Of a stretch of DNA of 61,173 nt, positions 3,172 to 57,225 are shown piece after piece; the first letter of the stretch is position 1, and each line of letters begins with the position of its first letter. Made by a program: the position numbers and the translations under genes. The notes below the pieces were generated by a model that searched no databases, was not told the DNA's origin, and saw nothing but the letters and a program-made list of their open reading frames with translations. This stretch comes from a virus, in IMG/VR virus record IMGVR_UViG_3300045988_099805, positions 1-61,173 of that record. One strand, given 5' to 3'.

Positions 3172-3489
3172 ATGTTTACAATCAATGATACGGCATGGGA
3201 TGTTGTGATTGTTCCGCCGGATGATTACCGGCTGCTTCGGAGTGATGGGACTATGAGTATAGGTGTTACCGACAGCAATACTCATGAAATTTATATTTCT
3301 AACCTAGTAAAAGGTGGATTTTTCAGAAAAGTGCTTACTCACGAAATATGTCACGCCATTTGCCTTAGTTATGACATTTATCTGCCGCTTGAGCAGGAAG
3401 AAGTTTTATGTGATTTTGTAGCAACATACGGAGCGGAAGTCTTTGAAATCGTTGATATGTTGCTATCGTCTATGAGGAGGGTTGCGTGA
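3172..3489 (+). CDS. putative zinc metallopeptidase (HExxH)
   Basis: LTHEICHAI motif. RBS gcgaggtga. Confidence 0.5.
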   Translation: MFTINDTAWDVVIVPPDDYRLLRSDGTMSIGVTDSNTHEIYISNLVKGGFFRKVLTHEICHAICLSYDIYLPLEQEEVLCDFVATYGAEVFEIVDMLLSSMRRVA

Positions 3490-3650
3490 TGGATATCAAA
3501 CAGCTACTTGACTACGTTCGCCGGACGAATCCGGATATTACAGAGGAGAAATTGGTCAAAGAATTATCGGTAAACGGGTATGCTTCACGTTCTCTGATTA
3601 TGACCGCAGAAAATAATACTTGCAAAAATGTTAGAGATATGATATTGTAG
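3489..3650 (+). CDS. hypothetical small protein (53 aa)
   Basis: The ATG overlaps the upstream TGA (gtgATGg). The ORF is below the track cutoff and was read manually. Confidence 0.4.
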   Translation: MDIKQLLDYVRRTNPDITEEKLVKELSVNGYASRSLIMTAENNTCKNVRDMIL

Positions 3651-3688
3651 TTATACAATTTAATATATTCTACAAGTTATCCATAAAA

Positions 3689-3726
3689 GCTATCGGGCAT
3701 TCAAGCGGCGTCCGGTAGCTTTTTTG
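3689..3726 (+). terminator. intrinsic terminator
   Basis: gctatcgg ... ccggtagc stem (8 bp, one G-U pair) followed by TTTTTT. Confidence 0.7.
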
Positions 3727-3755
3727 TTGCAAATTATTTTTAACTATGGTATAAT
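3727..3755 (+). promoter_or_regulatory. strong sigma70-type promoter with extended -10
   Basis: TTGCAA, 17 nt, TGgTATAAT. Palindromes ACATTTATAAAATGT and ACATTTTATGT lie immediately downstream and look like operators. Confidence 0.65.
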
Positions 3756-3863
3756 ACATTTATAAAATGTAAATTAAAATACATTTTATGTTTTTTTACA
3801 CAATTTATAATTTGAAGTACACGACACACATTGTGCAAAATGACGAAAGCGAGGTGCGACGAT

Positions 3864-4538
3864 ATGGTCAATAACTTCGACAACACGAATGGAATCTGCG
3901 TGAACACGAAGGATGATGTTTTGCGTGAGCGTTTTATTTTCGGTGCGGAGCTGACCGGCAAGTATGGTTTTCCGAAGTTGCCACCGATAAATGCATCCGC
4001 AGACGGATTGCGACCGGTTCCGTTTAATTCATCATCGAGAGAAAAGCATCCGGCAGACTGCCTGTGCCATTTCTTCATAGACGATAATTTGTTTGAGCGT
4101 CTATGGAACAATCCGCAGAAATATTTTGATATGCTTGGCAATTTCAAATACATCGCCGGTGTTGACTTCAGTTTTTACGATGATATGCCGGTAGCATTGC
4201 AGATATACCAGGTATACCGATCACGGGCGTTGTCTTGGTGGCTGACGCTAAACGGTATGGACGTGATACCGGTTGTCGGCTGGGGATCTGCGGATACATA
4301 CGGCTTTTGTTTTGACGGTCTGCCGATGCACAGCACTTTAATTGTCAGCACGAATCGTTGTTTTACAGACGCCGGAAAGCATTGTTATATAGTCGGATTC
4401 CGTGAAATGGTCCGGCGGCTGGAGCCGATCCGGGTCCTTGTGGTTGGCAGACCGATAGAGACAGGAACAGAAGGAGCAACAGAAATAATATATCTTGACA
4501 GCTTCGGGCAGGAGCTGACACAAAAATTAAGGGGGTGA
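3864..4538 (+). CDS. DUF4417-family protein
   Basis: HFFIDDNLFERLWNNP...DFSFYDDMP...YRSRALSWW...VIPVVGW matches my memory of DUF4417. ATG 3864 follows gcgaggtg. Confidence 0.6.
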   Translation: MVNNFDNTNGICVNTKDDVLRERFIFGAELTGKYGFPKLPPINASADGLRPVPFNSSSREKHPADCLCHFFIDDNLFERLWNNPQKYFDMLGNFKYIAGVDFSFYDDMPVALQIYQVYRSRALSWWLTLNGMDVIPVVGWGSADTYGFCFDGLPMHSTLIVSTNRCFTDAGKHCYIVGFREMVRRLEPIRVLVVGRPIETGTEGATEIIYLDSFGQELTQKLRG

Positions 4539-4542
4539 AAAG

Positions 4543-4704
4543 ATGGGCAGCAGATCCGGAACGAATAAGGGCGGTTATGTTTTCGGTGCTGACGCTATCG
4601 CCGAGACTTACACCGTTGAGCGTGACGGCGTGAAGATCATCCGCCTACGGTGGCATTTCAAACATTACAAAAAGAAATTGAAAGAAATCAAAACAAAAAA
4701 ATAA
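4543..4704 (+). CDS. hypothetical basic small protein (53 aa)
   Basis: AAGGGGGTG RBS. Read manually because the ORF is below the track cutoff. Confidence 0.45.
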   Translation: MGSRSGTNKGGYVFGADAIAETYTVERDGVKIIRLRWHFKHYKKKLKEIKTKK

Positions 4705-4730
4705 GGGGCTGTAATGCCCCTTTTAAACAC

Positions 4731-4759
4731 TTGACTTTTTTTAAATAAATAATTATAAT
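4731..4759 (+). promoter_or_regulatory. sigma70 promoter driving the mini-CRISPR unit
   Basis: TTGACT (4731-4736), 17 nt, TATAAT (4754-4759). Confidence 0.7.
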
Positions 4760-4777
4760 ATATTATGCAATTGCATA

Positions 4778-4867
4778 AATGTCCCCGCAACTGCGGGGGT
4801 GAACCTGATATGTTGAGAGGTTTATTTTTCGCGCTTTTGCATTCCCCGCGGTTGCGGGGGTCTGGTT
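4778..4867 (+). CRISPR. single-spacer mini-CRISPR array with type I-E-like repeats; no cas genes
   Basis: Repeat 1 is aatgTCCCCGCaactGCGGGGGTGAACCT (4778-4806). A 32-nt spacer follows (4807-4838). Repeat 2 is gcatTCCCCGCggttGCGGGGGTctggtt (4839-4867). The period is 29+32 nt. The stem, tetraloop and tail resemble the E. coli I-E repeat GAGTTCCCCGCGCCAGCGGGGATAAACCG. Confidence 0.5.
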
Positions 4868-4895
4868 TGTGCTTTTAAAAGCACAAACCTTTTTT
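4864..4895 (+). terminator. intrinsic terminator
   Basis: Perfect 9-bp stem ggtttgtgc/gcacaaacc, loop ttttaaaa, then TTTTTT. Confidence 0.8.
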
Positions 4896-5331
4896 AATGG
4901 GTGCAAACGCAGTATCCGTTGTTCAGCAATTCATTTTCTATTTCAGAAATATCTTTTTTTGCGTTTTCTGTTTTTTTTGACCAAGCATTTTCCCAACTGA
5001 AACCGTTGGATTTTGCGATTTTACGAAAATCGTCTTCTTTTTTGTAGAAAAGAAAGATCCTTCCGTCTATTCCGACAACCTCAACGACTCCATCATGCTT
5101 GATTTCCTCTGGCTTTTCAGAAACTAAAAAAACCATTTCTTTGTACTTTTGGAAGTCCTCATAATCTTTTACATTTGCGGGAGAAATTACATTTCTCCCT
5201 TCTATCCAAAATTCCGCAGAAGTTTCTTTTTTTACGATGATATCCGGGTGAACTCCACGTTTTTCACACCACACGAAAAATTTAGTTCTTATAGAGTCAG
5301 CCCATGATATTTGCTTTTCCGTTCCTGTCAA
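4894..5331 (-). CDS. hypothetical protein (at least 145 aa); start uncertain
   Basis: The track start is a TTG with no RBS. The frame stays open and protein-like for 35 more codons upstream (to about 5437) without an ATG, GTG or TTG. Confidence 0.5.
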   Translation of the reverse strand: MTGTEKQISWADSIRTKFFVWCEKRGVHPDIIVKKETSAEFWIEGRNVISPANVKDYEDFQKYKEMVFLVSEKPEEIKHDGVVEVVGIDGRIFLFYKKEDDFRKIAKSNGFSWENAWSKKTENAKKDISEIENELLNNGYCVCTH

Positions 5332-5437
5332 CTGTGGGAATTCAAAATTCTCTAGTCTTTCCTGCGCTTTTTCTTCTAGATCGGCAACGAGCTTCTTGCC
5401 ATCCTCTATAATCTTCGCCTCTCTTTCTCTGCGGCGT

Positions 5438-5647
5438 CTAGTTTAAACAATTTTCGATTTCTTTCGCAAGGTGTGGGAAAGCTTCTTTTATATCCTGCAC
5501 ACTGTCGGCGTAATAGTCGCCAACAATTTTTCCGAAAATTCTAAGATTTCCGAAATAAAAGCCACCAAGATTATTAAAGTTAATATCTAAACCTGTCACC
5601 TGTTCCGCCTTGTCTCCATACCACATATCAATATTTGCTTTTTCCAT
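5438..5647 (-). CDS. hypothetical small protein (69 aa)
   Basis: AGGAGGAAT RBS on the minus strand. Part of the leftward operon. Confidence 0.55.
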   Translation of the reverse strand: MEKANIDMWYGDKAEQVTGLDINFNNLGGFYFGNLRIFGKIVGDYYADSVQDIKEAFPHLAKEIENCLN

Positions 5648-5738
5648 TTTTTTATTCCTCCTTTTTTTTAATTTTTTTGCTTTGCCTCATCTGTGCAGGT
5701 GGGGCAGTTCCTACAGACCGCCGTGCGGCGGTTTTGAA

Positions 5739-5948
5739 TTAAACAATTTCTAAATATCCTAAGATTTCCACATCAGCGGGAATACAGAAGAACATCACCC
5801 CGGATGGTCTGTATTTCGGAACGTATGAAGCATGATAGCTTTTCCCATTGTTGCCGATTGCTAAATATTCCCCGGCTATATGCTTCTTTGCTATTTCCTC
5901 AAAACTTATTAAATCCTCTGTAGTTATCTTTCTTTCTGTAACTGTCAT
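5739..5948 (-). CDS. hypothetical small protein (69 aa)
   Basis: RBS aaaggaaac on the minus strand. Part of the leftward operon. Confidence 0.55.
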   Translation of the reverse strand: MTVTERKITTEDLISFEEIAKKHIAGEYLAIGNNGKSYHASYVPKYRPSGVMFFCIPADVEILGYLEIV

Positions 5949-6027
5949 ATCTGTTTCCTTTCTAGTCTGCCATCATCAGCACCGGGAGACCGTCCCGCGG
6001 TGGACGCTCCTTTGTGGAGCGTTTCGG

Positions 6028-6297
6028 CTAATATCTACAAGGATTTTCATAGCGGATTATAACCACCTTTTCGCCTGTGCTTTTTAGCGTTCCGAAGCCG
6101 TTAAACATCGGACCATTTAAGCCTAATAATTTAGGCTGGTTATAAAGCTCTTGCCGCTGTCTTTCTGCATCCCATCCGTTGTTGTAGCCATATATAAGGC
6201 TTTTCATTTGCTCTGCTGTCTTAATCTGTGCCGGCAAATCATAAACGCATTTCTCGCCGCTCTCAAGTGTTCCTATAATCATATCAATTACCTCCAT
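6028..6297 (-). CDS. hypothetical small protein (89 aa)
   Basis: RBS tggaggta on the minus strand. First gene of the leftward operon. Confidence 0.55.
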   Translation of the reverse strand: MEVIDMIIGTLESGEKCVYDLPAQIKTAEQMKSLIYGYNNGWDAERQRQELYNQPKLLGLNGPMFNGFGTLKSTGEKVVIIRYENPCRY

Positions 6298-6324
6298 ATT
6301 TTAAAATTCCCAGTTATCCGGGTA

Positions 6325-6370
6325 AAGCAAGCCGGGGGATTGAACCCCGGAACCGCCTGCCGGTCTTGCT
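6325..6370 (-). other. tRNA top-half mimic (acceptor stem plus T-arm minihelix) in the leftward-operon leader
   Basis: The minus strand reads AGCAAGA-ccggcaggcggttc-CGGGG-TTCAATC-CCCCG-GCTTGCT-t. That is a canonical T-arm and a 6-bp acceptor-like stem, with no D or anticodon arm. Confidence 0.35.
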
Positions 6371-6494
6371 ACTTGATTGACAGCTCCAGACTGTCAATAT
6401 TGCCATTTTCCATTTTCTCAAGAATGGCTGCAACCTCTTCTTTGATAGATCCCTCTGCCGGATGTTCCGGCTCCTTTCTTCTGATCTTTAATAC

Positions 6495-6523
6495 ATTATA
6501 TTCTAATATTAGAATAATGTCAA
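6495..6523 (-). promoter_or_regulatory. leftward consensus promoter with palindromic operator in the spacer
   Basis: The minus strand reads TTGACA, 17 nt, TATAAT. The spacer contains the perfect palindrome TTCTAATATTAGAA (6501-6514). Confidence 0.75.
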
Positions 6524-6608
6524 GTGTTTTTATTCAAAAAATAGAATATTCTCTATTGACTTTTTTTACCTTGTATTATATCATTCATATATAAAGGAGG
6601 TGATCAGC

Positions 6609-6836
6609 ATGATCAAATATAGGGTCGATGTTTTCCGGCTGCTTAAAGAGCATGGTTACAATCAAACAAGGATACAAAAAGAAAGGTTGTTGCCCGGTCA
6701 GACAGCTCAAAATATAAAAGCCGGAAAAAGCATAACGCTTGATACGCTCAATAAAATCTGCATAATGTGCAAATGTCAACCGGGTGATATAATTGAAATT
6801 GTTCCGACTGATGAAGAAAAGATTAAATACTATTGA
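6609..6836 (+). CDS. XRE/Cro-type helix-turn-helix regulator (75 aa)
   Basis: ATG 6609 lies 8 nt after AAGGAGG. The ...ITLDTLNKICIMCKCQPGDIIEIV pattern is typical of small HTH_26/XRE proteins. Confidence 0.65.
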   Translation: MIKYRVDVFRLLKEHGYNQTRIQKERLLPGQTAQNIKAGKSITLDTLNKICIMCKCQPGDIIEIVPTDEEKIKYY

Positions 6837-8334: not shown

Positions 8335-8364
8335 CAGCGATTAAATTATTATTTTTTTAGATAT

Positions 8365-8392
8365 TGACAAAATAAAAATATTGGTTTATAAT
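8365..8392 (+). promoter_or_regulatory. consensus sigma70 promoter
   Basis: TTGACA (8365-8370), 16 nt, TATAAT (8387-8392). Confidence 0.7.
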
Positions 8393-8399
8393 TTCAATT

Positions 8400-8590
8400 A
8401 CAATTTAGATCTGAAGCGCAGCCGGTGCTACCGGCAGAGGATCACCCCGGAGCCGTGAGAGGGGAGTAGATACTTAAAGCGATAGGACGGGACGAGCTAG
8501 GACGGCAATGGAACGCTCACAGGAATGACCAGAGGTGTTATATATGCACCTGCTAGGTTTTTCTTGTGGGCGTTTTTTATTTGATTTTAG
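8400..8590 (+). ncRNA. GC-rich structured leader RNA upstream of the terS-like gene (class unknown)
   Basis: Lies between a consensus promoter and the RBS. It is locally GC-rich in an AT-rich genome, with hairpins gccgg-tgcta-ccggc and aggtg-ttatatatg-cacct followed by U-runs. Confidence 0.4.
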
Positions 8591-8601
8591 GAGGTGAGAA
8601 C

Positions 8602-9267
8602 GTGGAGCGATTAGAGGATGAGCCATTGACCGGCGAGGTATTCGCGAACGAGATTGAGTATTATTTACAAGAATTTTGTGAGCAGAGAAAGCCGCCTATC
8701 GAGGATATGACAACAGCACCGCAGGGAGTATGGAATGCAGCTCTTTTATATATTCAACATCACCTTTTTAAGGGGACAAATAAATTAAAATTAAACAATC
8801 ACCTTAATGGTTATAAAAATAATAATAACTCTGATATTACTAGCAATCTTAATAAGTCAAATTGTAATGCTTATAATATTAGTCTAGTAAATGATATATG
8901 TGATTATTATATATATATGTGTTATCAATACGGTAAAGAAGTTAGTATATTAGGATTTAATAAATTAACTGGGATAGATGATAATACTATATATGCGTGG
9001 AGAGATGAAAAGAATATATTAAGTGATTCGGGTGCGGACATTTACAAAAAATTATCGCAGGAAAGAGAGGAGAGCTTGAGTGCGAAGCTGGTAGACAGCA
9101 AGCAGGCGGTAGCGCAGATAGCAATTCTCAATAAGCATTACGGATGGAATCTTCCAGGCGTAAGCAAGGAGCGAGAAGCGAAGAAAGCACTCACAGCAGC
9201 AGACATCCGAGCGAGGTTGTCTGACAGCAAACACACCGGAACACAAGATATTGTGGATGGCGGATAA
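8602..9267 (+). CDS. terminase small subunit-like DNA-binding protein
   Basis: GTG 8602 follows TAGGAGG. ...ILGFNKLTGIDDNTIYAWRDE... and ...AQIAILNKHYGWNLPG resemble TerS families. It lies 5.4 kb from terL, so the function is uncertain. Confidence 0.4.
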   Translation: MERLEDEPLTGEVFANEIEYYLQEFCEQRKPPIEDMTTAPQGVWNAALLYIQHHLFKGTNKLKLNNHLNGYKNNNNSDITSNLNKSNCNAYNISLVNDICDYYIYMCYQYGKEVSILGFNKLTGIDDNTIYAWRDEKNILSDSGADIYKKLSQEREESLSAKLVDSKQAVAQIAILNKHYGWNLPGVSKEREAKKALTAADIRARLSDSKHTGTQDIVDGG

Positions 9268-9289: not shown

Positions 9290-9545
9290 GTCTATGGGAG
9301 AAACTGCGGTTTATCCAAGAGAGCTAAAAGAACGACGGGAACCGGACGGAAAAGCACCGTTCCGGAACCATCTCACGGCTCCGGATGGGAAAAGGGGCGT
9401 CCCCCTCTGCACCGGACGCCCTGACGGGCGTACTAAGCCCCCAAAATATTCTCAAAAACAAAAAGACCTTGGCGTAGATAGGGTAGCTCCCGACAAGCTG
9501 CAACCTTTCACAGCTTCTACGCCGATTAAAGAAAGGGTATGTCTA
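9290..9545 (+). ncRNA. GC-rich structured RNA element (class unknown)
   Basis: The track ORF 9294..9548 has no RBS and a P/R/G-rich translation. There are many helices, including gggcgtcc/ggacgccc, the alternative pairing acgccc/gggcgt, and ggcgtaga/tctacgcc. Confidence 0.4.
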
Positions 9546-11117: not shown

Positions 11118-11189
11118 TGGGGTATCGCCAAATGGTAAGGCATGGGATTTTGGTTCCCAGACTTCCCGGTTCGAATCCGGGTACCCTAG
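11118..11189 (+). tRNA. tRNA-Gln (anticodon UUG)
   Basis: TGGGGTA-TC-GCC-AAATGGTAA-GGC-A-TGGGA-TTTTGGT-TCCCA-GACTT-CCCGG-TTCGAAT-CCGGG-TACCCTA-G. This is close to E. coli tRNA-Gln. It is 72 nt long and has no encoded CCA. Confidence 0.85.
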
Positions 11190-11664: not shown

Positions 11665-11873
11665 TTTTGCTTTTGAGAATCAGTTGTGCAGAAACCAATG
11701 ATATCAATGGAAGAACAGAAACTACATGATTTCTTGAAAGTAAGTATTTTACAACAAACTAGGTGATGCAGACCGAAAAGCAGACCTACGACTGCCTGTT
11801 TGTTGTTTTTATTGATCGTAGAGTTTAGCACATAAAGCGTGGTGCTGTTTATGTTTCGTAGGAGGTAAACAAT

Positions 11874-13727: not shown

Positions 13728-13848
13728 AATGGACATGCCGGAGGTGGGGAACTGCGTTGCACCCACGCGCCTTGCGTAAATGACGTAACGGTTAAAAGAG
13801 ATGGAGCAGATTGCAACGGCTCCGCGGCATATTTTAAGGAGATAAAAA
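13728..13848 (+). promoter_or_regulatory. GC-rich structured leader (possible cis-regulatory RNA)
   Basis: Closing helix atgccggag / ctccg(c)ggcat encloses gtggg...cccac and a long-range gcgttgca / tgcaacg pairing. It ends at the AAGGAG RBS of the next gene. Confidence 0.3.
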
Positions 13849-41732: not shown

Positions 41733-42554
41733 ATGTCAGTTAAAGGTTACAAAGCTTACGAAAAAGGAATGATTTGCAAAGGAAAGCAGTATGAGGAAAA
41801 TACTACTTACGAGGAAAGCGGAAACGAAATTTGTGAATCTGGTGTTATGCATTTTTGCAAGGAGCCGTTCGACGTGCTTAATTATTATCCATTAGTAGAT
41901 GAAAATGGCAATATTTCTGAATTTTCAGAGGTGGAAGCTGTCGGAGATGTATACGAAAAAGAGGATAAATGTGCCACGAACAAATTACACGTCGGTTTAA
42001 AGCTTGGTCTTAAAGGATTTATTAAAGCGTGTGTTGACTTTACAATCGAAAAGACAGGATTTACCTGTGATGATTCAGGCGAAAACGACAGCAAAGGAGG
42101 AAACGCAAAGATTGGTAGCTCTGGAGATTACGCACAGATTGGTAGCTCTGGACATTACGCACAGATTGGTAGCTCTGGAGATTACGCAAAGATTGGTAGC
42201 TCTGGATATTACGCACAGATTGGTAGCTCTGGAGATTCCGCAAAGATTGGTAGCTCTGGAGATTCAGCACAGATTGGTAGCTCTGGAGATTCCGCAAAGA
42301 TTGGTAGCTCTGGAGATTCCGCAAAGATTGAATCGGAAGGAAAACACTCCGTAATAATGGCGGCTGGAATGGACTCTGTTGCAAAAGCAAAAATTGGCAG
42401 TTGGATTACATTGGCTGAATGGGAAAGAAAAAATGAAAACGATAATTCTTATTGGATTCCGGTATGCGTCAAAACAGAATGTGTTGACGGAGAAAAAATT
42501 AAAGAAGATACGTTTTACCGATTAAAAAACGGAGAATTTGTGGAGCTTGAATAG
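41733..42554 (+). CDS. hypothetical protein with eight tandem IGSSGDxAx nonapeptides
   Basis: N-terminal ...GYKAYEKGMICKGKQYEENTTYE...GVMHFCKEPFDVLNYY, then the 27-bp repeats. Confidence 0.6.
   Translation: MSVKGYKAYEKGMICKGKQYEENTTYEESGNEICESGVMHFCKEPFDVLNYYPLVDENGNISEFSEVEAVGDVYEKEDKCATNKLHVGLKLGLKGFIKACVDFTIEKTGFTCDDSGENDSKGGNAKIGSSGDYAQIGSSGHYAQIGSSGDYAKIGSSGYYAQIGSSGDSAKIGSSGDSAQIGSSGDSAKIGSSGDSAKIESEGKHSVIMAAGMDSVAKAKIGSWITLAEWERKNENDNSYWIPVCVKTECVDGEKIKEDTFYRLKNGEFVELE
42111..42326 (+). repeat. 8 x 27-bp in-frame tandem repeat
   Basis: attggtagctctggagattacgcacag units with substitutions mostly in codons 6-9. Confidence 0.9.
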
Positions 42555-45924: not shown

Positions 45925-46533
45925 ATGAGTAGTAAAACATTGGAAATGGCAAGGGAACTGGTAAAAAGACTTGAAGAAGAGGAGAAAAAAAGCAAAGTCA
46001 AACTTTGTGAATTGCATCCGGGCGATACATTCAAAATTGGAGATCATGATTTTATCGTCCTCTTTCAAGATGATTTCACGGAAACAACAAGAGTAATCTC
46101 AAAAGGATTCATGGCAGAAAATATCGTATTTGATGATGATACGAGAGACTACAGCAAATCTAATCTTAGAAAGGTCATCGAGGGAGATATTCAGCCTATT
46201 ATCGAAGCGGAGGTTGGTGAAGAAAATATTGCTGAATATTCTGTTGACTTGACAACGGTTGATATGCAGGAAGAATTTTCTCATTTTAAATGCAAGGTCA
46301 GACCTATTACATTTGATGAAGCAAGAAAGTACAATGATCTTCTTGTGAATAACGAGTTAAATGATTGGTGGTGGACTTGCACACCGTGGTCTACAGCTGA
46401 AAGAGGATGGGAGTATTCAATCGCCGTTGTTGCTTCGTCCGGCAATTTCAACTACTGGGGCTGCAATGGCAACTGCGGTGTTCGCCCATTTTGTATCTTG
46501 AAATCTAATATCTTTGTATCGAAGGGAGAATAA
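45925..46533 (+). CDS. DGR variable protein 1 (202 aa)
   Basis: Its C-terminus carries VR1. A paralogue of 46536..47144. ...WWWTCTPWS...VVASSGNFNYWGCNGNCGVRPFCI. Confidence 0.8.
   Translation: MSSKTLEMARELVKRLEEEEKKSKVKLCELHPGDTFKIGDHDFIVLFQDDFTETTRVISKGFMAENIVFDDDTRDYSKSNLRKVIEGDIQPIIEAEVGEENIAEYSVDLTTVDMQEEFSHFKCKVRPITFDEARKYNDLLVNNELNDWWWTCTPWSTAERGWEYSIAVVASSGNFNYWGCNGNCGVRPFCILKSNIFVSKGE
46422..46496 (+). repeat. DGR variable repeat VR1
   Basis: Compared with the TR: 11 substitutions, all at TR adenines, plus C69->T. Confidence 0.85.
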
Positions 46534-46535
46534 TT

Positions 46536-47144
46536 ATGGCTAATTTAACAATGAAAATTTTACAGGAGCAGATCAACGACCTTAGAAATGAGGTTGCCAT
46601 TTTGAAAGCAGAAAAAAGTTTTTCTAAAATCCATACCGGTCTTAAAATCGGAGACACTTTTAAAATCGCAGGTCTTGACTGGAAGATTATTGACATTACA
46701 GACAAGGGTTATTCTTGCCTTTGTGAAATTTTGGAAGAAGAGATGAAGTTTGACGATTCTTCTAACGACTGGAGATCGAGCGTTTTAAGAGAATATTTGA
46801 ATGGGGATTTTCTCAAAAAGATATCCGATGAAGTTGGAAAAGAAAATATCGTTAAGTTCGAAAGAGATCTGTTATCTCTGGACGGTCAGACGGAATATGA
46901 AAAGTACGAGGATTTTATTTCTCTTCTTACTGTAGATGAATACAGGAAATATCGAAGTCTTATTCCAAATGAGGGAAATTGGTGGTGGCTTATTACTCCT
47001 TGGAGTACACCTTGCAACGATTATGAATATTCGGTTACCGTTGTTGCTTCGTCCGGCAGTATCGACAGCGGGAACTACAATGGCGACTTCGGTGTTCGCC
47101 CATTTTGTATCTTTTCTTCTTCAATCTTTGAATCAGAGGAGTAA
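46536..47144 (+). CDS. DGR variable protein 2 (202 aa)
   Basis: Its C-terminus carries VR2. ...WWWLITPWS...VVASSGSIDSGNYNGDFGVRPFCI. Confidence 0.8.
   Translation: MANLTMKILQEQINDLRNEVAILKAEKSFSKIHTGLKIGDTFKIAGLDWKIIDITDKGYSCLCEILEEEMKFDDSSNDWRSSVLREYLNGDFLKKISDEVGKENIVKFERDLLSLDGQTEYEKYEDFISLLTVDEYRKYRSLIPNEGNWWWLITPWSTPCNDYEYSVTVVASSGSIDSGNYNGDFGVRPFCIFSSSIFESEE
47037..47111 (+). repeat. DGR variable repeat VR2
   Basis: Compared with the TR: 9 substitutions, all at TR adenines, plus C69->T. Confidence 0.85.
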
Positions 47145-47148
47145 TTAA

Positions 47149-47520
47149 ATGGCTGGAACGGAATTAAAGGTAATCTTGAAAGCAAAAGACCTTGCTGAAC
47201 ATACACTGCGGATAACTTCAAACTGCAATAGATATCCGAAGAAATACAGATTTTCTCTTGTGGATAAAATGCAAAATAAAGCACTTGAAATCTATGAGTA
47301 TCTGTATGAATCTAATCGAACGGATTTGAAGTTGTATCGCAGGGAGCGGTCGGAGCTTCAAACCAAAGCAATAACGCATTGTGACGAACTTTTGTTTTAC
47401 ATTGAATTATCAACGAAACTAAACATCATAAATGCAAAAAGCACGGAATATTGGTCGAAGATGGTTTCTGACATTAAGCATATGGCGATTGCTTGGAGAA
47501 CTAAGGACAAAGAAAGATAA
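47149..47520 (+). CDS. avd: DGR accessory variability determinant (Avd-like four-helix-bundle protein)
   Basis: 123 aa, basic. ...RYPKKYRFSLVDKMQNKALEIYEYLYESN... pattern. Positioned between target and TR. Confidence 0.75.
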   Translation: MAGTELKVILKAKDLAEHTLRITSNCNRYPKKYRFSLVDKMQNKALEIYEYLYESNRTDLKLYRRERSELQTKAITHCDELLFYIELSTKLNIINAKSTEYWSKMVSDIKHMAIAWRTKDKER

Positions 47521-47545
47521 ATTTATTAGGTTGCGCACTGCATAA

Positions 47546-47620
47546 ACCGTTGTTGCTTCGTCCGGCAATATCAACAACAGGAACTACAATAACAACAACG
47601 GTGTTCGCCCATTCTGTATC
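47546..47620 (+). repeat. DGR template repeat (TR)
   Basis: accgttgttgcttcgtccggcaatatcaacaacaggaactacaataacaacaacggtgttcgcccattctgtatc. It is non-coding, rich in AAC/AAT codons in the VR frame, and has 22 adenines. Confidence 0.85.
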
Positions 47621-47718
47621 ACACAGACAGTTATAGTAGGTAGTAAGCCGAAATCGGAAAAAGATACAAAAAAGTGCACGACCTTTCCTAAAAGGATAAA
47701 TACAAAGGAATTTTTACT

Positions 47719-48747
47719 ATGGATAAAGATATTATTTGTGATTATGAAAATCTGTATAAGGCTTATAAGAAAGCTAAATACGGTAAAAAATTCAATGGCA
47801 GCAGTGCAAAATTTCAGACAATGAGCCTTGAAGGACTGCATCTTTTAAAAGAACAGCTTGAAAATCAGACATACCGGATGAATCCGTACAATGAATTTAA
47901 GGTCTATGAACCTAAGGAGAGAGTGATTAAATCGTGTTCTTTTAAGGATAAAGTTGTTCAACATTGTCTGTGCGATAACATATTGTATCCGAGATTGGAA
48001 AGCGAGTTCATCAAAACCAATTATGCAGGGCAGAAAGGAAAAGGAACTCATTTCGGAATGGATTGTCTAAGAGATCAAATGCTTGAGTTTTACGTAAAGC
48101 ACGGTCTTGATGGCTGGATTCTTAAATGTGATATTAAGAAGTTTTTCTACCAGATAGATCACGAAATCTTAAAAGATATTGTTGACTATCATTTTCCAGA
48201 CGAATATGTGAAGTGGTTAAATCATTTGTTTATAGACAGCACAGATGGTTTGGGACTTCCGCTTGGAAACCAAGTTGCACAGGTTTATGCTTTGTTGATG
48301 CTTAACGGGTTAGATCGTTTTATTACCGGAGAATTAGGTATAAAACTATACGGACGATATATGGACGATTTCTACTTAATCCACCAAGATAAAGGTTATT
48401 TGATGTGGTACCTTGACTGCATAAGGGAATTTGTTGCCAGTCTCAGATTGTCGCTGAATGGGAAAACGCAAATATTGCCGTTTAAAAACGGGATACTGTT
48501 TACCGGTTTTCATCATTACATTGCGAAAGACGGAAAATACATAAGAAAACTTACAGGATCGAATAAACGTAAAATCCGCAAGAAGATTAGAACATGGGTA
48601 AAGCTTGTGAAATCTGGAAGAATGACAGAAAAGAAGTTTTATGAAAAGTACAATGCCTGGAAAAATCATGCATTACACGGAAATTGCGTAAAACTTTGTT
48701 ATTCAATGGATTTATATGTAAAAGAATTATTTGAAAGCGAGGAATGA
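47719..48747 (+). CDS. DGR reverse transcriptase
   Basis: 342 aa. YGRYMDDF catalytic motif. LPLGNQVAQ resembles the DGR-RT (I/L)GxxxSQ signature. Confidence 0.9.
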   Translation: MDKDIICDYENLYKAYKKAKYGKKFNGSSAKFQTMSLEGLHLLKEQLENQTYRMNPYNEFKVYEPKERVIKSCSFKDKVVQHCLCDNILYPRLESEFIKTNYAGQKGKGTHFGMDCLRDQMLEFYVKHGLDGWILKCDIKKFFYQIDHEILKDIVDYHFPDEYVKWLNHLFIDSTDGLGLPLGNQVAQVYALLMLNGLDRFITGELGIKLYGRYMDDFYLIHQDKGYLMWYLDCIREFVASLRLSLNGKTQILPFKNGILFTGFHHYIAKDGKYIRKLTGSNKRKIRKKIRTWVKLVKSGRMTEKKFYEKYNAWKNHALHGNCVKLCYSMDLYVKELFESEE

Positions 48748-51340: not shown

Positions 51341-52527
<1,187 letters not shown>

Positions 52528-54538: not shown

Positions 54539-55011
54539 CATTTCCTTGTACGGATTTATCAGTTGCTGGAAAATAAGCCGGAATGTCTAAGGGCAGTGGC
54601 ACAAGAAGCGGTCTGTTGTGGGAAGTCGAGAGAATACTAACAGAAATCAGAGATAGTGACGGAGAATTACCACAGATTTTATTTATGGAAAATGTACCAC
54701 AGGTACACGGAAAGAAAAATATTGATGATTTTAAAAAGTGGTTGGAGTTCTTGGAGAGTTTAGGGTACAAAAATTATTGGCAAGATTTGAATGCTAAAAA
54801 TTATGGAGTGGCGCAGAACAGAAACAGATGTTTTATGTTTTCGTTCCTTGGTAATTACTCATATGATTTTCCGAACCATATACCACTCAAAAAGAAGTTG
54901 AAAGACTATCTTGAGGATAATGTGGATGAAAGGTATTACATCCACAACGAAAAGGCTGACAAGCTGATAAAACAGCTTATTGACAACGGCACATTACCAC
55001 AACACAATATT

Positions 55012-55062
<51 letters not shown>

Positions 55063-55271
55063 TTGGGTTGTCGAGAATGAATGCAATTCTTAATTATAAT
55101 CATGTAAATAAAATTGATAATGGTGTAGCCAAAACATTGTGTGCTAGAGATTATAAAGGCTTTGGAACAGGCTTTGATACAATGAATGGAGTAATTGAAT
55201 GGAAAAATTAACAGACGCTATCGGAATAGTGCTTTTTGAAAGTGAAAAATTCGGTGGCGAAAAGGTACTTA

Positions 55272-56427: not shown

Positions 56428-57225
56428 GTGGACGGATGGATAAAGCTTTACAGGAAAATGGTTGACTGCTGTATTTGGCAATCTAACGAACCGTTTGACA
56501 AAAGAAGTGCTTGGGTGGATTTGCTTCTTCTTATGCAACACAAAGAAAAGAAGATGATGGTTGATGGAGTTGTTAAGTCTGTGAAGCGTGGCTCATATAT
56601 GTTCAGCATTGACAAATTGGCGTCACGTTGGCGTTGGTCTCGTAACAAGGTTAAGCGTTACTTGAGTGAACTGGAAAGTGAACAAATGTTGTACACAGAA
56701 CGAACCAACAAAGGAACGCTCATAACCGTAGTAAATTACGGGGTTTATCAAGGGTGTGAAAAATTTGGTGAACCAACAGACGAACCAACAGACGAACCAT
56801 CAGACGAACCATCAGACGAACCATCAGACGAACCATCAGACGAACCACAAAACAAGAATATAAAGAATGTAAGAAGTAAAGAAAGAAAGAAATATATATG
56901 TGCATTTGAGGAATTTTGGAAAATTTACCCACGGAAAATCAACAAGGGTAAGGCGTATGAGTGTTACTGTGCCAGAGTAAACAGCGGTTATTCCGAGGCG
57001 GAGCTTTTAGAAGCCGTCAGAAATTATGCGGATGAATGCAAAAAGAAAGGCACGCCTACGGAGTACATAAAGCATGGAACGACATTTCTTAGTGCCGCCA
57101 CACCGTTTGTTGATTATTTAGACAAGAATTACAAGGGAGGCAATGATGGATGTAATAGACAGGACAATAGACAAAGTGATGGCGGATATTCAGATTATGA
57201 GAAATTCTTCCGAGAGGCACATTGA
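56428..57225 (+). CDS. phage replication initiator / replisome organiser (DnaD-like)
   Basis: GTG start after AAAGGTGG. N-terminal WIKLYRKM...WVDLLLL...SIDKLASRWRWSRNKVKRYLSELE wHTH. (EPTD/EPSD)n linker. C-terminal FEEFWKIYPRK domain. Confidence 0.55.
   Translation: MDGWIKLYRKMVDCCIWQSNEPFDKRSAWVDLLLLMQHKEKKMMVDGVVKSVKRGSYMFSIDKLASRWRWSRNKVKRYLSELESEQMLYTERTNKGTLITVVNYGVYQGCEKFGEPTDEPTDEPSDEPSDEPSDEPSDEPQNKNIKNVRSKERKKYICAFEEFWKIYPRKINKGKAYECYCARVNSGYSEAELLEAVRNYADECKKKGTPTEYIKHGTTFLSAATPFVDYLDKNYKGGNDGCNRQDNRQSDGGYSDYEKFFREAH
56770..56841 (+). repeat. 6 x 12-bp tandem repeat GAACCA(A/T)CAGAC inside the initiator gene
   Basis: Counted from the sequence, plus a partial seventh unit. Encodes the EPTDEPTDEPSDEPSDEPSDEPSD linker. 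Confidence 0.9.

Follow-up and report, generated by a model that had tools for sequence, protein, structure and literature searches.

Viral mini-CRISPR arrays (CRISPR, clusters of regularly interspaced short palindromic repeats) hold one or two spacers between host-like repeats, carry no cas genes, lie in intergenic regions of the virus genome behind a promoter of their own, and rely on the Cas proteins of the host (Faure et al., 2019; Medvedeva et al., 2019, PMC6858448). Racrs, two of which are of type I-E (RacrIE1 and RacrIE2), are solitary, promoter-proximal repeat mimics in intergenic regions of phages; they match the CRISPR subtype of the targeting host, form an aberrant subcomplex and inhibit CRISPR (Camara-Wilpert et al., 2023, PMC10651486). 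A non-targeting CRISPR RNA (crRNA) also lowers interference, through competition (PMC10651486). Cracrs and other viral crRNA-like RNAs are phage-borne I-E units of the form psi-repeat, psi-spacer, psi-repeat that keep the parts critical for a crRNA (Liu et al., bioRxiv 10.1101/2024.10.29.618823, on a Salmonella prophage I-E array; Shmakov et al., 10.1101/2023.03.03.530964), and phage I-E crRNA-like arrays undergo Cas-dependent processing and inhibit immunity (bioRxiv 10.1101/2024.10.29.618823). Here we describe a related element, comprising a promoter, two I-E-like repeats around a single spacer of 32 nucleotides (nt), and a terminator, at positions 4731-4895 of the phage record IMGVR_UViG_3300045988_099805 from IMG/VR. 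The stretch analysed, positions 1-61,173 of that record, is referred to as the window.

We read the element as a phage gene for a crRNA-like small RNA with an anti-CRISPR, decoy purpose, and assign this reading a probability of roughly 0.4. The broader statement, that it is a CRISPR-derived RNA gene directed at the Cascade of the host, is quite likely. Viral mini-arrays, Racrs and I-E Cracr arrays have already been published (PMC6858448, PMC10651486, bioRxiv 10.1101/2024.10.29.618823), and the element opens no new category. It would act most like a full-length crRNA decoy or guide, and represents a clean sequence-level example from an abundant human-gut phage lineage. At ~165 bp, it is also a compact construct for asking whether such an RNA is a decoy, a repressor or a weapon.

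All the traits of viral mini-arrays named above are shared by the element. However, mini-arrays have near-identical repeats, host-like leaders, spacer turnover and spacers matching related viruses (PMC6858448), whereas the element has degenerate outer repeat halves and an invariant spacer for which the searches gave no target. No match in a mobile element with a valid protospacer-adjacent motif (PAM) was obtained in five sequence collections or in sister phages of the window, no spacer turnover was seen, and inspection by eye revealed no evident host-like leader relative to that of the I-E locus L135 (labels beginning with L are our handles for contigs and genomes) beyond a short GCATAAAT. As in Racrs, a promoter lies less than 250 bp upstream and the subtype is that of the targeting host. 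A Racr is a solitary repeat, whereas the window element has two repeats at array spacing with a correct 5' handle and, unlike a Racr, should yield a complete, normal-looking Cascade. With Cracrs it shares the degenerate psi-repeat/psi-spacer/psi-repeat layout outside a CRISPR-cas locus, the expectation that Cas6e would yield an RNA whose handle has 8 nt, and the expected competition with host crRNAs. What defines Cracrs, however, is similarity to a host CreR/CreA or partial complementarity with the promoter of cas or creT; neither of these, nor at least 9 PAM-proximal matches to a CreR/CreA guide, cas or creT promoter, was found in four I-E loci. Validated I-E Cracrs have guides of 21-24 nt and come from Enterobacteria; the guide here has 32 nt and the host clade is human-gut Lachnospiraceae. 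Finally, the chromosomal I-E array of L076/L135 (repeat ATATTCCCCGCGTATGCGGGGGTGAACCT) has the same stem, handle, 29 + 32 = 61-nt unit, polarity and 3'-degenerate terminal repeat, but the window element differs from it in lacking cas genes and an acquisition-competent leader-repeat junction, in having one spacer, in its loops and in the degenerate 5' part of its first repeat.

Anatomy of the element and origin of its repeats

The element begins with a sigma-70-type promoter, TTGACT-17-TATAAT (4731-4759, + strand), which matches the consensus at 11 of 12 positions, the joint-best score within 3500-6500, and is 100% conserved along with the element in six other contigs. Transcription would start at about 4766. 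Repeat-like sequence 1 (psi-R1, hereafter R1; AATGTCCCCGCAACTGCGGGGGTGAACCT, 4778-4806, +) contains a hairpin at 4783-4798 and ends in the 8-nt 5' handle GTGAACCT (4799-4806, +). It is followed by the spacer-like 32-mer GATATGTTGAGAGGTTTATTTTTCGCGCTTTT (4807-4838, +), which is unique in the window, and by repeat-like sequence 2 (psi-R2, hereafter R2; GCATTCCCCGCGGTTGCGGGGGTCTGGTT, 4839-4867, +), with a hairpin at 4844-4859 and a degenerate 3' tail. An intrinsic terminator (4864-4895, +) closes the unit, its 11-bp stem and 4-nt loop (4864-4889) being followed by a run of six T; the stem overlaps the final 4 nt of R2. The 3' end of the spacer, TTCGCGCTTTT (4828-4838), resembles the 5' arm of the terminator, TTTGTGCTTTT (4866-4876), and could pair with the 3' arm.

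A preliminary description of this DNA, made from the sequence alone, had given positions and sequences for the promoter, the repeats and the spacer that proved exact on re-reading, and recounting R1 against R2 returned the same 17 identical nucleotides of 29. The terminator it named is present, with a stem of 11 bp rather than 9. It had also placed the unit between two terminators. The downstream one is the terminator just named; the upstream one is a hairpin at 4703-4722 that serves as the terminator of the neighbouring gene, which encodes 53 amino acids (aa; 4543-4704), and its better T-run is on the minus-strand side. The place of this hairpin, though not its sequence, is common to the sister phages, whose sequences diverge beyond it, and it forms the left edge of a variable slot. 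The element itself sits between convergent open reading frames (ORFs), the 53-aa one ending at 4704 and one of 145 aa ending at 4894.

The motif CCCCGC-N4-GCGGGG occurs at two sites in the 61 kb, both in the element, against 0.21 expected. Together, R1 and R2 make up a direct repeat of 19 nt that recurs after 61 nt, the sole CRISPR-like repeat in the window, and promoter, repeat polarity and terminator all have the same orientation (+). In type I-E systems, Cas6e cuts behind each repeat hairpin. By this rule, the predicted mature crRNA would span 4799-4859 (+) and consist of the 8-nt handle, the 32-nt guide and a 21-nt 3' hairpin handle, 61 nt in all.

GTDB species representatives were scanned for CCCCGC-N4-GCGGGGGTGAACC, which returned many true arrays. 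Low-GC arrays whose repeats end in GTGAACCT came from metagenome-assembled genomes (MAGs) of Lachnospiraceae, Ruminococcus and Selenomonadaceae; in Lachnospiraceae and Ruminococcus MAGs the repeat reads ...CCCCGC-N4-GCGGGGGTGAACCT with period 61. A search for hosts with matching I-E arrays, which the preliminary description had put forward as a check, was thus successful, and one of the hosts has spacers against the phage family of the window. The final 14 nt of R1 (GCGGGGGTGAACCT) are identical to those of the repeat at the L076/L135 locus of human-gut Lachnospiraceae, which has a complete I-E cas operon. That repeat, ATATTCCCCGCGTATGCGGGGGTGAACCT, is found in L076 and L057 with period 61; at the L076/L135 locus the period is 61 in 18 of 19 units, and host arrays overall range over 61-62.

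A covariance model was built from 16 genuine low-GC type I-E repeats of the host type. R1 was its best match in the window (30.4 bits, E 3.6e-7, + strand), and R2, exactly 61 nt further on, the third best (13.4 bits). Both score lower on the minus strand, the plus strand being that of the promoter and terminator. A match at 8438-8469 (-; 15.2 bits, E 0.04) was taken as chance; it lies antisense to a 5' untranslated region (UTR) behind a 12/12 promoter, and the stretch shows no unusual structure (z -0.8). Both the repeat and hairpin match and the ~61-nt period with a 32-nt spacer, which mark the host-type I-E repeat family, are found in the element. It appears to be one repeat-spacer-repeat unit of a host-type I-E array and not a chance pair of hairpins. 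The score of R1 and the 61-nt period agree with the initial picture of a one-spacer unit without cas genes, of I-E repeat architecture and with its own promoter and terminator. As to the absence of cas genes, also claimed at the outset, tblastn with the eight Cas proteins of a matching I-E locus found no I-E cas gene in the window (all E > 0.1).

R1 agrees with the L076 repeat at 23 of 29 positions (stems 12/12, handle 8/8, 5' flank 2/5), and R2 at 20 of 29 (stems 12/12, tail 3/8, 5' flank 3/5). The stems of R1 and R2 are thus 24/24 identical to those of the host repeat, and the loops have diverged; loops differ freely among, and even within, genuine arrays. With stems and loops excluded, 11 of 13 positions needed in a crRNA match the L076 repeat, versus 5 of 13 dispensable ones (Fisher p = 0.02), in line with the earlier statement that the handle and the hairpin side of R2 are intact and the outer flanks degenerate. 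Conservation is confined to the places where a mature 61-nt crRNA would need its parts. A 3'-degenerate final repeat also occurs in natural arrays (L109); L109 had been considered as two solitary repeats, which was dropped, as it is an ordinary array with variant repeats.

The element might instead have nothing to do with CRISPR and consist of tandem terminators, of a stabiliser in the 3' UTR of the convergent 145-aa gene, or of an attenuator or structured small RNA of unrelated origin. Its location between convergent genes, always together with the 145-aa gene, would suit such an origin, as would the strong folding of both strands, which is far better than that of shuffled sequences (z -6.5 and -6.8), and Rfam contains no family that matches the element. 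However, Rfam is equally blind to the genuine L076 array, so the missing match is uninformative. A non-CRISPR origin is made very improbable by the 14 nt shared with the end of the host repeat, the period of exactly 61 nt and the strand-specific scores of the covariance model. Moreover, just 9 stretches of IMG/VR contain a 23-nt hairpin-plus-handle pattern, and each one inspected proved to be either a solitary repeat or a mini-array; unrelated viral contigs, too, carry solitary or mini-array I-E-like repeats with the same handle.

A passive relic is likewise improbable, whether a decaying fragment of a host array captured by recombination from mid-repeat to mid-repeat or a mere patch of homology at which host arrays can recombine with the phage. 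That the outer ends are degenerate could reflect the break-points of such a fragment, and all copies are clonal. Yet the 11/12 promoter 23 nt upstream and the strong terminator immediately after are both correctly oriented, the loops have diverged while stems and handle are perfect, and an independent, promoter-driven repeat lies in the same slot of sister phages. Promoter, polarity, period and model scores together render the relic and the non-CRISPR origin unlikely.

The host type I-E system and the variable slot

The array of L076 (Lachnospiraceae HGM12554, human gut) lies directly downstream of cse1-cse2-cas7-cas5-cas6e-cas1-cas2(DEDDh), and L135 contains a 99%-identical locus that adds cas3. 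Three L076 spacers match sister phages of the window with 0 mismatches. The leader-proximal one has such matches in L145 and L147, and its protospacer in the window (4632-4663, -) has the flank AAT and 3 mismatches, at spacer positions 2, 5 and 17. Positions 2 and 5 belong to the seed, and these mismatches resemble escape mutations. The other two spacers match L146, again with 0 mismatches, and one of them also has a protospacer with 5 mismatches in the window (8935-8967, +). The flank is AAT in two of the three perfect protospacers, including that of the leader-proximal spacer, AGT in variants, and AAC for the third, a 33-nt spacer. These flanks point to AAT/AGT as the PAM of the host, and AAT fits the repeat, because the last base of the repeat is T. 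The 5' flank of the element's own spacer is CCT and not AAT, so no self-targeting is expected.

Since L076 spacers match sister phages, the link to the host is direct. A human-gut Lachnospiraceae lineage with an L076-type I-E system thus attacks the phage family of the window, and the repeat mimicked by the element is the repeat of that very system. The phage is in this way tied to a concrete host type: Lachnospiraceae, I-E, repeat ATATTCCCCGCGTATGCGGGGGTGAACCT and a probable PAM of AAT. L147, one of the family members (ENA ERZ28759639 contig_5415), lies within a contig of 289.7 kb, suggesting an integrated prophage.

The slot behind the 53-aa gene is hypervariable across IMG/VR and ENA/Logan relatives. 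ENA and Logan assemblies were searched by exact-protein look-ups, and 24 contigs were read. Five IMG/VR relatives, in which a flanking DUF4417 protein is 92-94% identical, have no element and carry other minus-strand cargo genes past the terminator of the 53-aa gene, which is itself indexed in 437 blocks of public assemblies. The element is absent from most ENA/Logan relatives and identical wherever present. Among the matches listed, every contig that encodes the exact 145-aa protein carries the identical element (L139-L143 and L150). The element-bearing contigs come from at least six different sequencing samples and are ~100% identical to the window over kilobases. Because the 145-aa gene (4894-5331, -), an orphan convergent with the element, always occurs with it, the two form one cassette in one clonal strain. 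The 145-aa protein had no match in Pfam, PHROG or PDB and no homologue, IMG/VR included. It was considered as an anti-CRISPR protein (Acr) and set aside, as it matches no family; a single-sequence AlphaFold2 model (predicted local distance difference test score 38) was not used. A pattern specific for R2, which would pick up family members with other spacers, gave no match in IMG/VR.

Three sister phages (L144, L148 and L149) carry a solitary I-E-like repeat in the slot of the element, on the opposite strand. A promoter, TTGACA-17-TAAAAT (11/12), is followed after 13 nt by the repeat GTTTTCCCCGCGTTAGCGGGGG (together 3202-3269, -, of L144; the same in the other two), which scores 21.8 bits (E 4e-4) on the host-repeat covariance model and has no proper handle. 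The repeat runs into a shared bidirectional terminator and adjoins an orphan 94-aa gene. This element has the single repeat of a Racr where the window element has two; its architecture is that of a Racr or solitary repeat, which could not guide anything. In one cargo slot, the same CRISPR repeat is thus mimicked by two alternative RNAs. That a swappable slot pairs a crRNA unit with a Racr-like repeat, together with the direct host-spacer evidence, makes the element worth testing at the bench.

Decoy or guide

From what is observed directly (the anatomy, the host-type derivation of the repeats, the host I-E spacers, the cassette and the solitary repeat of the sister phages), a course of events can be proposed. 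The strong constitutive promoter would drive a transcript of ~130 nt ending at the intrinsic terminator. Cas6e of the host would bind the two CCCCGC/GCGGGG hairpins and cut behind each, releasing the 61-nt RNA (4799-4859), which would consist of the host's own 5' handle GUGAACCU, the fixed 32-nt guide and a Cas6e-bound 3' hairpin. This RNA would assemble into a complete host Cascade and, if abundant, would divert Cas6e and Cascade subunits from phage-targeting host crRNAs, both during infection and in the lysogen. The captured Cascade may also be sent to some target.

An anti-CRISPR role by competition or sequestration is favoured because the host I-E system targets the phage family of the window, because a repeat mimic without a guide fills this slot in sister phages, and because the spacer does not vary and the searches gave no target for it. 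It is favoured also because the outer repeat ends, being degenerate, do not look suited to acquiring spacers, and because published I-E Racrs, non-targeting crRNA and phage crRNA-like arrays inhibit interference. A fixed spacer and degenerate outer ends fit a hard-wired RNA rather than an adaptive array.

Several points weigh against this reading. All the proposed steps, from transcription and cleavage by Cas6e to loading into Cascade and competition, are extrapolated from the established I-E pathway. A pure decoy needs neither a perfect 8-nt handle nor a canonical 32-nt guide, and this precision argues that the guide is used. All carriers are ~100% identical, so comparison yields no evidence of purifying selection, and no known acr gene, a frequent though not obligatory neighbour of Racrs, lies beside the element, its neighbours being small orphans without a family match. 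Four orphan genes make up the minus-strand cargo operon at 4894-6297, which shows no obvious terminator ahead of the element; transcripts reading through from it could be antisense to the crRNA unit and would end at the 4722-4703 hairpin. In the minimum-free-energy fold, moreover, R1 pairs with R2 as a 17-bp helix instead of forming two local hairpins (-62.7 versus -56.3 kcal/mol). As a control, 19 of 19 repeat-spacer-repeat units of the L076 array likewise prefer pairing of the R1:R2 type, and the long helix was dropped as an argument against CRISPR, since the genuine host array folds alike. The R1 loop AACT (4794-4797) is complementary to the R2 loop GGTT (4850-4853), counting one G-U pair (chance ~0.02).

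The preliminary description had suggested that the spacer serves to exclude competing phages or plasmids. As a true interference guide, it would direct Cascade and Cas3 of the host to destroy a competing phage, plasmid or prophage, in superinfection exclusion or lysogenic conversion. The canonical 32-nt guide, the perfect 5' handle and the 61-nt unit speak for such a guide, as does the moron-like, promoter-to-terminator form of the unit, the phage being temperate and encoding a CI-like repressor as well as a serine recombinase. Relatives occur within a 290-kb contig, and there is precedent in archaeal viruses and other phages (PMC6858448; 10.1101/2023.03.03.530964). Searches for the protospacer left every sixth base free, as I-E pairing allows, and gave no match to the 32-mer in IMG/VR, GTDB species representatives or JGI metagenomes. 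BLAST against INPHARED phages and PLSDB plasmids returned chance-level matches only, and neither the sister phages nor any fetched locus contained a match; these searches used exact patterns or BLAST, and divergent targets in unsampled elements remain possible.

When the pattern was relaxed to positions 1-23, one match was obtained in IMG/VR and 19 in JGI metagenomes, all with 21-26 of 32 identities, non-AAT flanks and unrelated AT-rich contigs. These are chance matches, because the pattern is AT-rich, 19 is about the expected number and the PAMs are wrong. The best of them, L138 (the start of a marine-type phage gene, with six near-identical copies; flank TCC/TCA) and L164 (a non-coding stretch, flank TAG), were both rejected as chance. 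The lack of a protospacer is weak evidence, as most CRISPR spacers have no database match. However, the spacer is identical in every copy of the element, all carriers being clonal, without any turnover, and a guide-less solitary repeat occupies the same slot in sister phages. We therefore regard a true interference guide as somewhat unlikely. With the phage family targeted by the host I-E system and a solitary repeat filling this slot in sister phages, competitor exclusion is no more likely than an anti-CRISPR role.

A regulatory guide of the Cracr type would pair only partially, on the PAM-proximal side, with a host promoter (that of the cas operon, of a toxin that guards CRISPR or of some other defence gene), making Cascade a repressor without cleavage. 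The degenerate psi-repeat/psi-spacer/psi-repeat layout is that of CreR, CreA and Cracrs, and twenty I-E Cracr arrays have been reported in phages, one of them validated against the Salmonella I-E system (bioRxiv 10.1101/2024.10.29.618823). Host-encoded mini-arrays anticorrelate with prophage ones (10.1101/2023.03.03.530964), and the L135 locus has none; no CreR-like repeat was found in L135. Four distinct Lachnospiraceae I-E loci (L135, L173/L174, L175 and L176/L177), fetched via Cas7 homologues, were compared with the guide. Their sequences, cas3 upstream regions included, contain no PAM-proximal match of at least 10 nt, and the best seeds are 8-9 nt long with wrong flanks. Together with the full-length guide, which exceeds the 21-24 nt of validated I-E Cracrs, this leaves a regulatory role with little probability.

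In a further reading the guide is put to work. The RNA may be a hard-wired and fully competent guide, one that turns the I-E Cascade of Lachnospiraceae on a particular locus of the host or of a rival prophage, for example another defence system, a proposal we consider rather unlikely. If it were true, the slot would document the step from a guide-less decoy of the L144 type to a complete crRNA unit, and RNA anti-defence cassettes would be swapped in human-gut phages like protein anti-defence genes.

Phage context and other features of the window

The window represents a temperate phage, with an SPP1-type portal, a Bro-N/ANT antirepressor, a CI-like repressor and a large serine recombinase. An HTH_26 gene (6600-6836) lies in the same cargo neighbourhood as the element. 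Between two small minus-strand cargo genes there is a type II hammerhead ribozyme (5961-6029, -; Rfam 64.5 bits), within which fall most of the few differences among the otherwise identical contigs (L141, 6011-6013; L150, 5980-6002). The ribozyme may be a recombination break-point between cargo cassettes.

Above Rfam gathering scores on the plus strand are two int-alpA RNA motifs, one skipping-rope RNA motif and a transfer RNA gene (9471-9537, 11752-11818, 13734-13831 and 11118-11189, respectively). A promoter matching the consensus at 12 of 12 positions (8364-8392, +) is followed by ~165 untranslated nt before the ORF at 8566-9267, a stretch without unusual structure (z -0.8). A diversity-generating retroelement occupies 46364-48747, with an RVT_1 reverse transcriptase (47719-48747), an A-rich template-like repeat (47546-47620), variable-like copies (46423-46497 and 47037-47111) and longer repeat arms (46364-46525 and 46978-47139). 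In-frame tandem repeats comprise nine 27-nt units (42069-42365) within the ORF at 41733-42554, two long (GACA)n runs 3.3 kb apart (51712-51767 and 55004-55067) and six 12-nt units (56758-56853).

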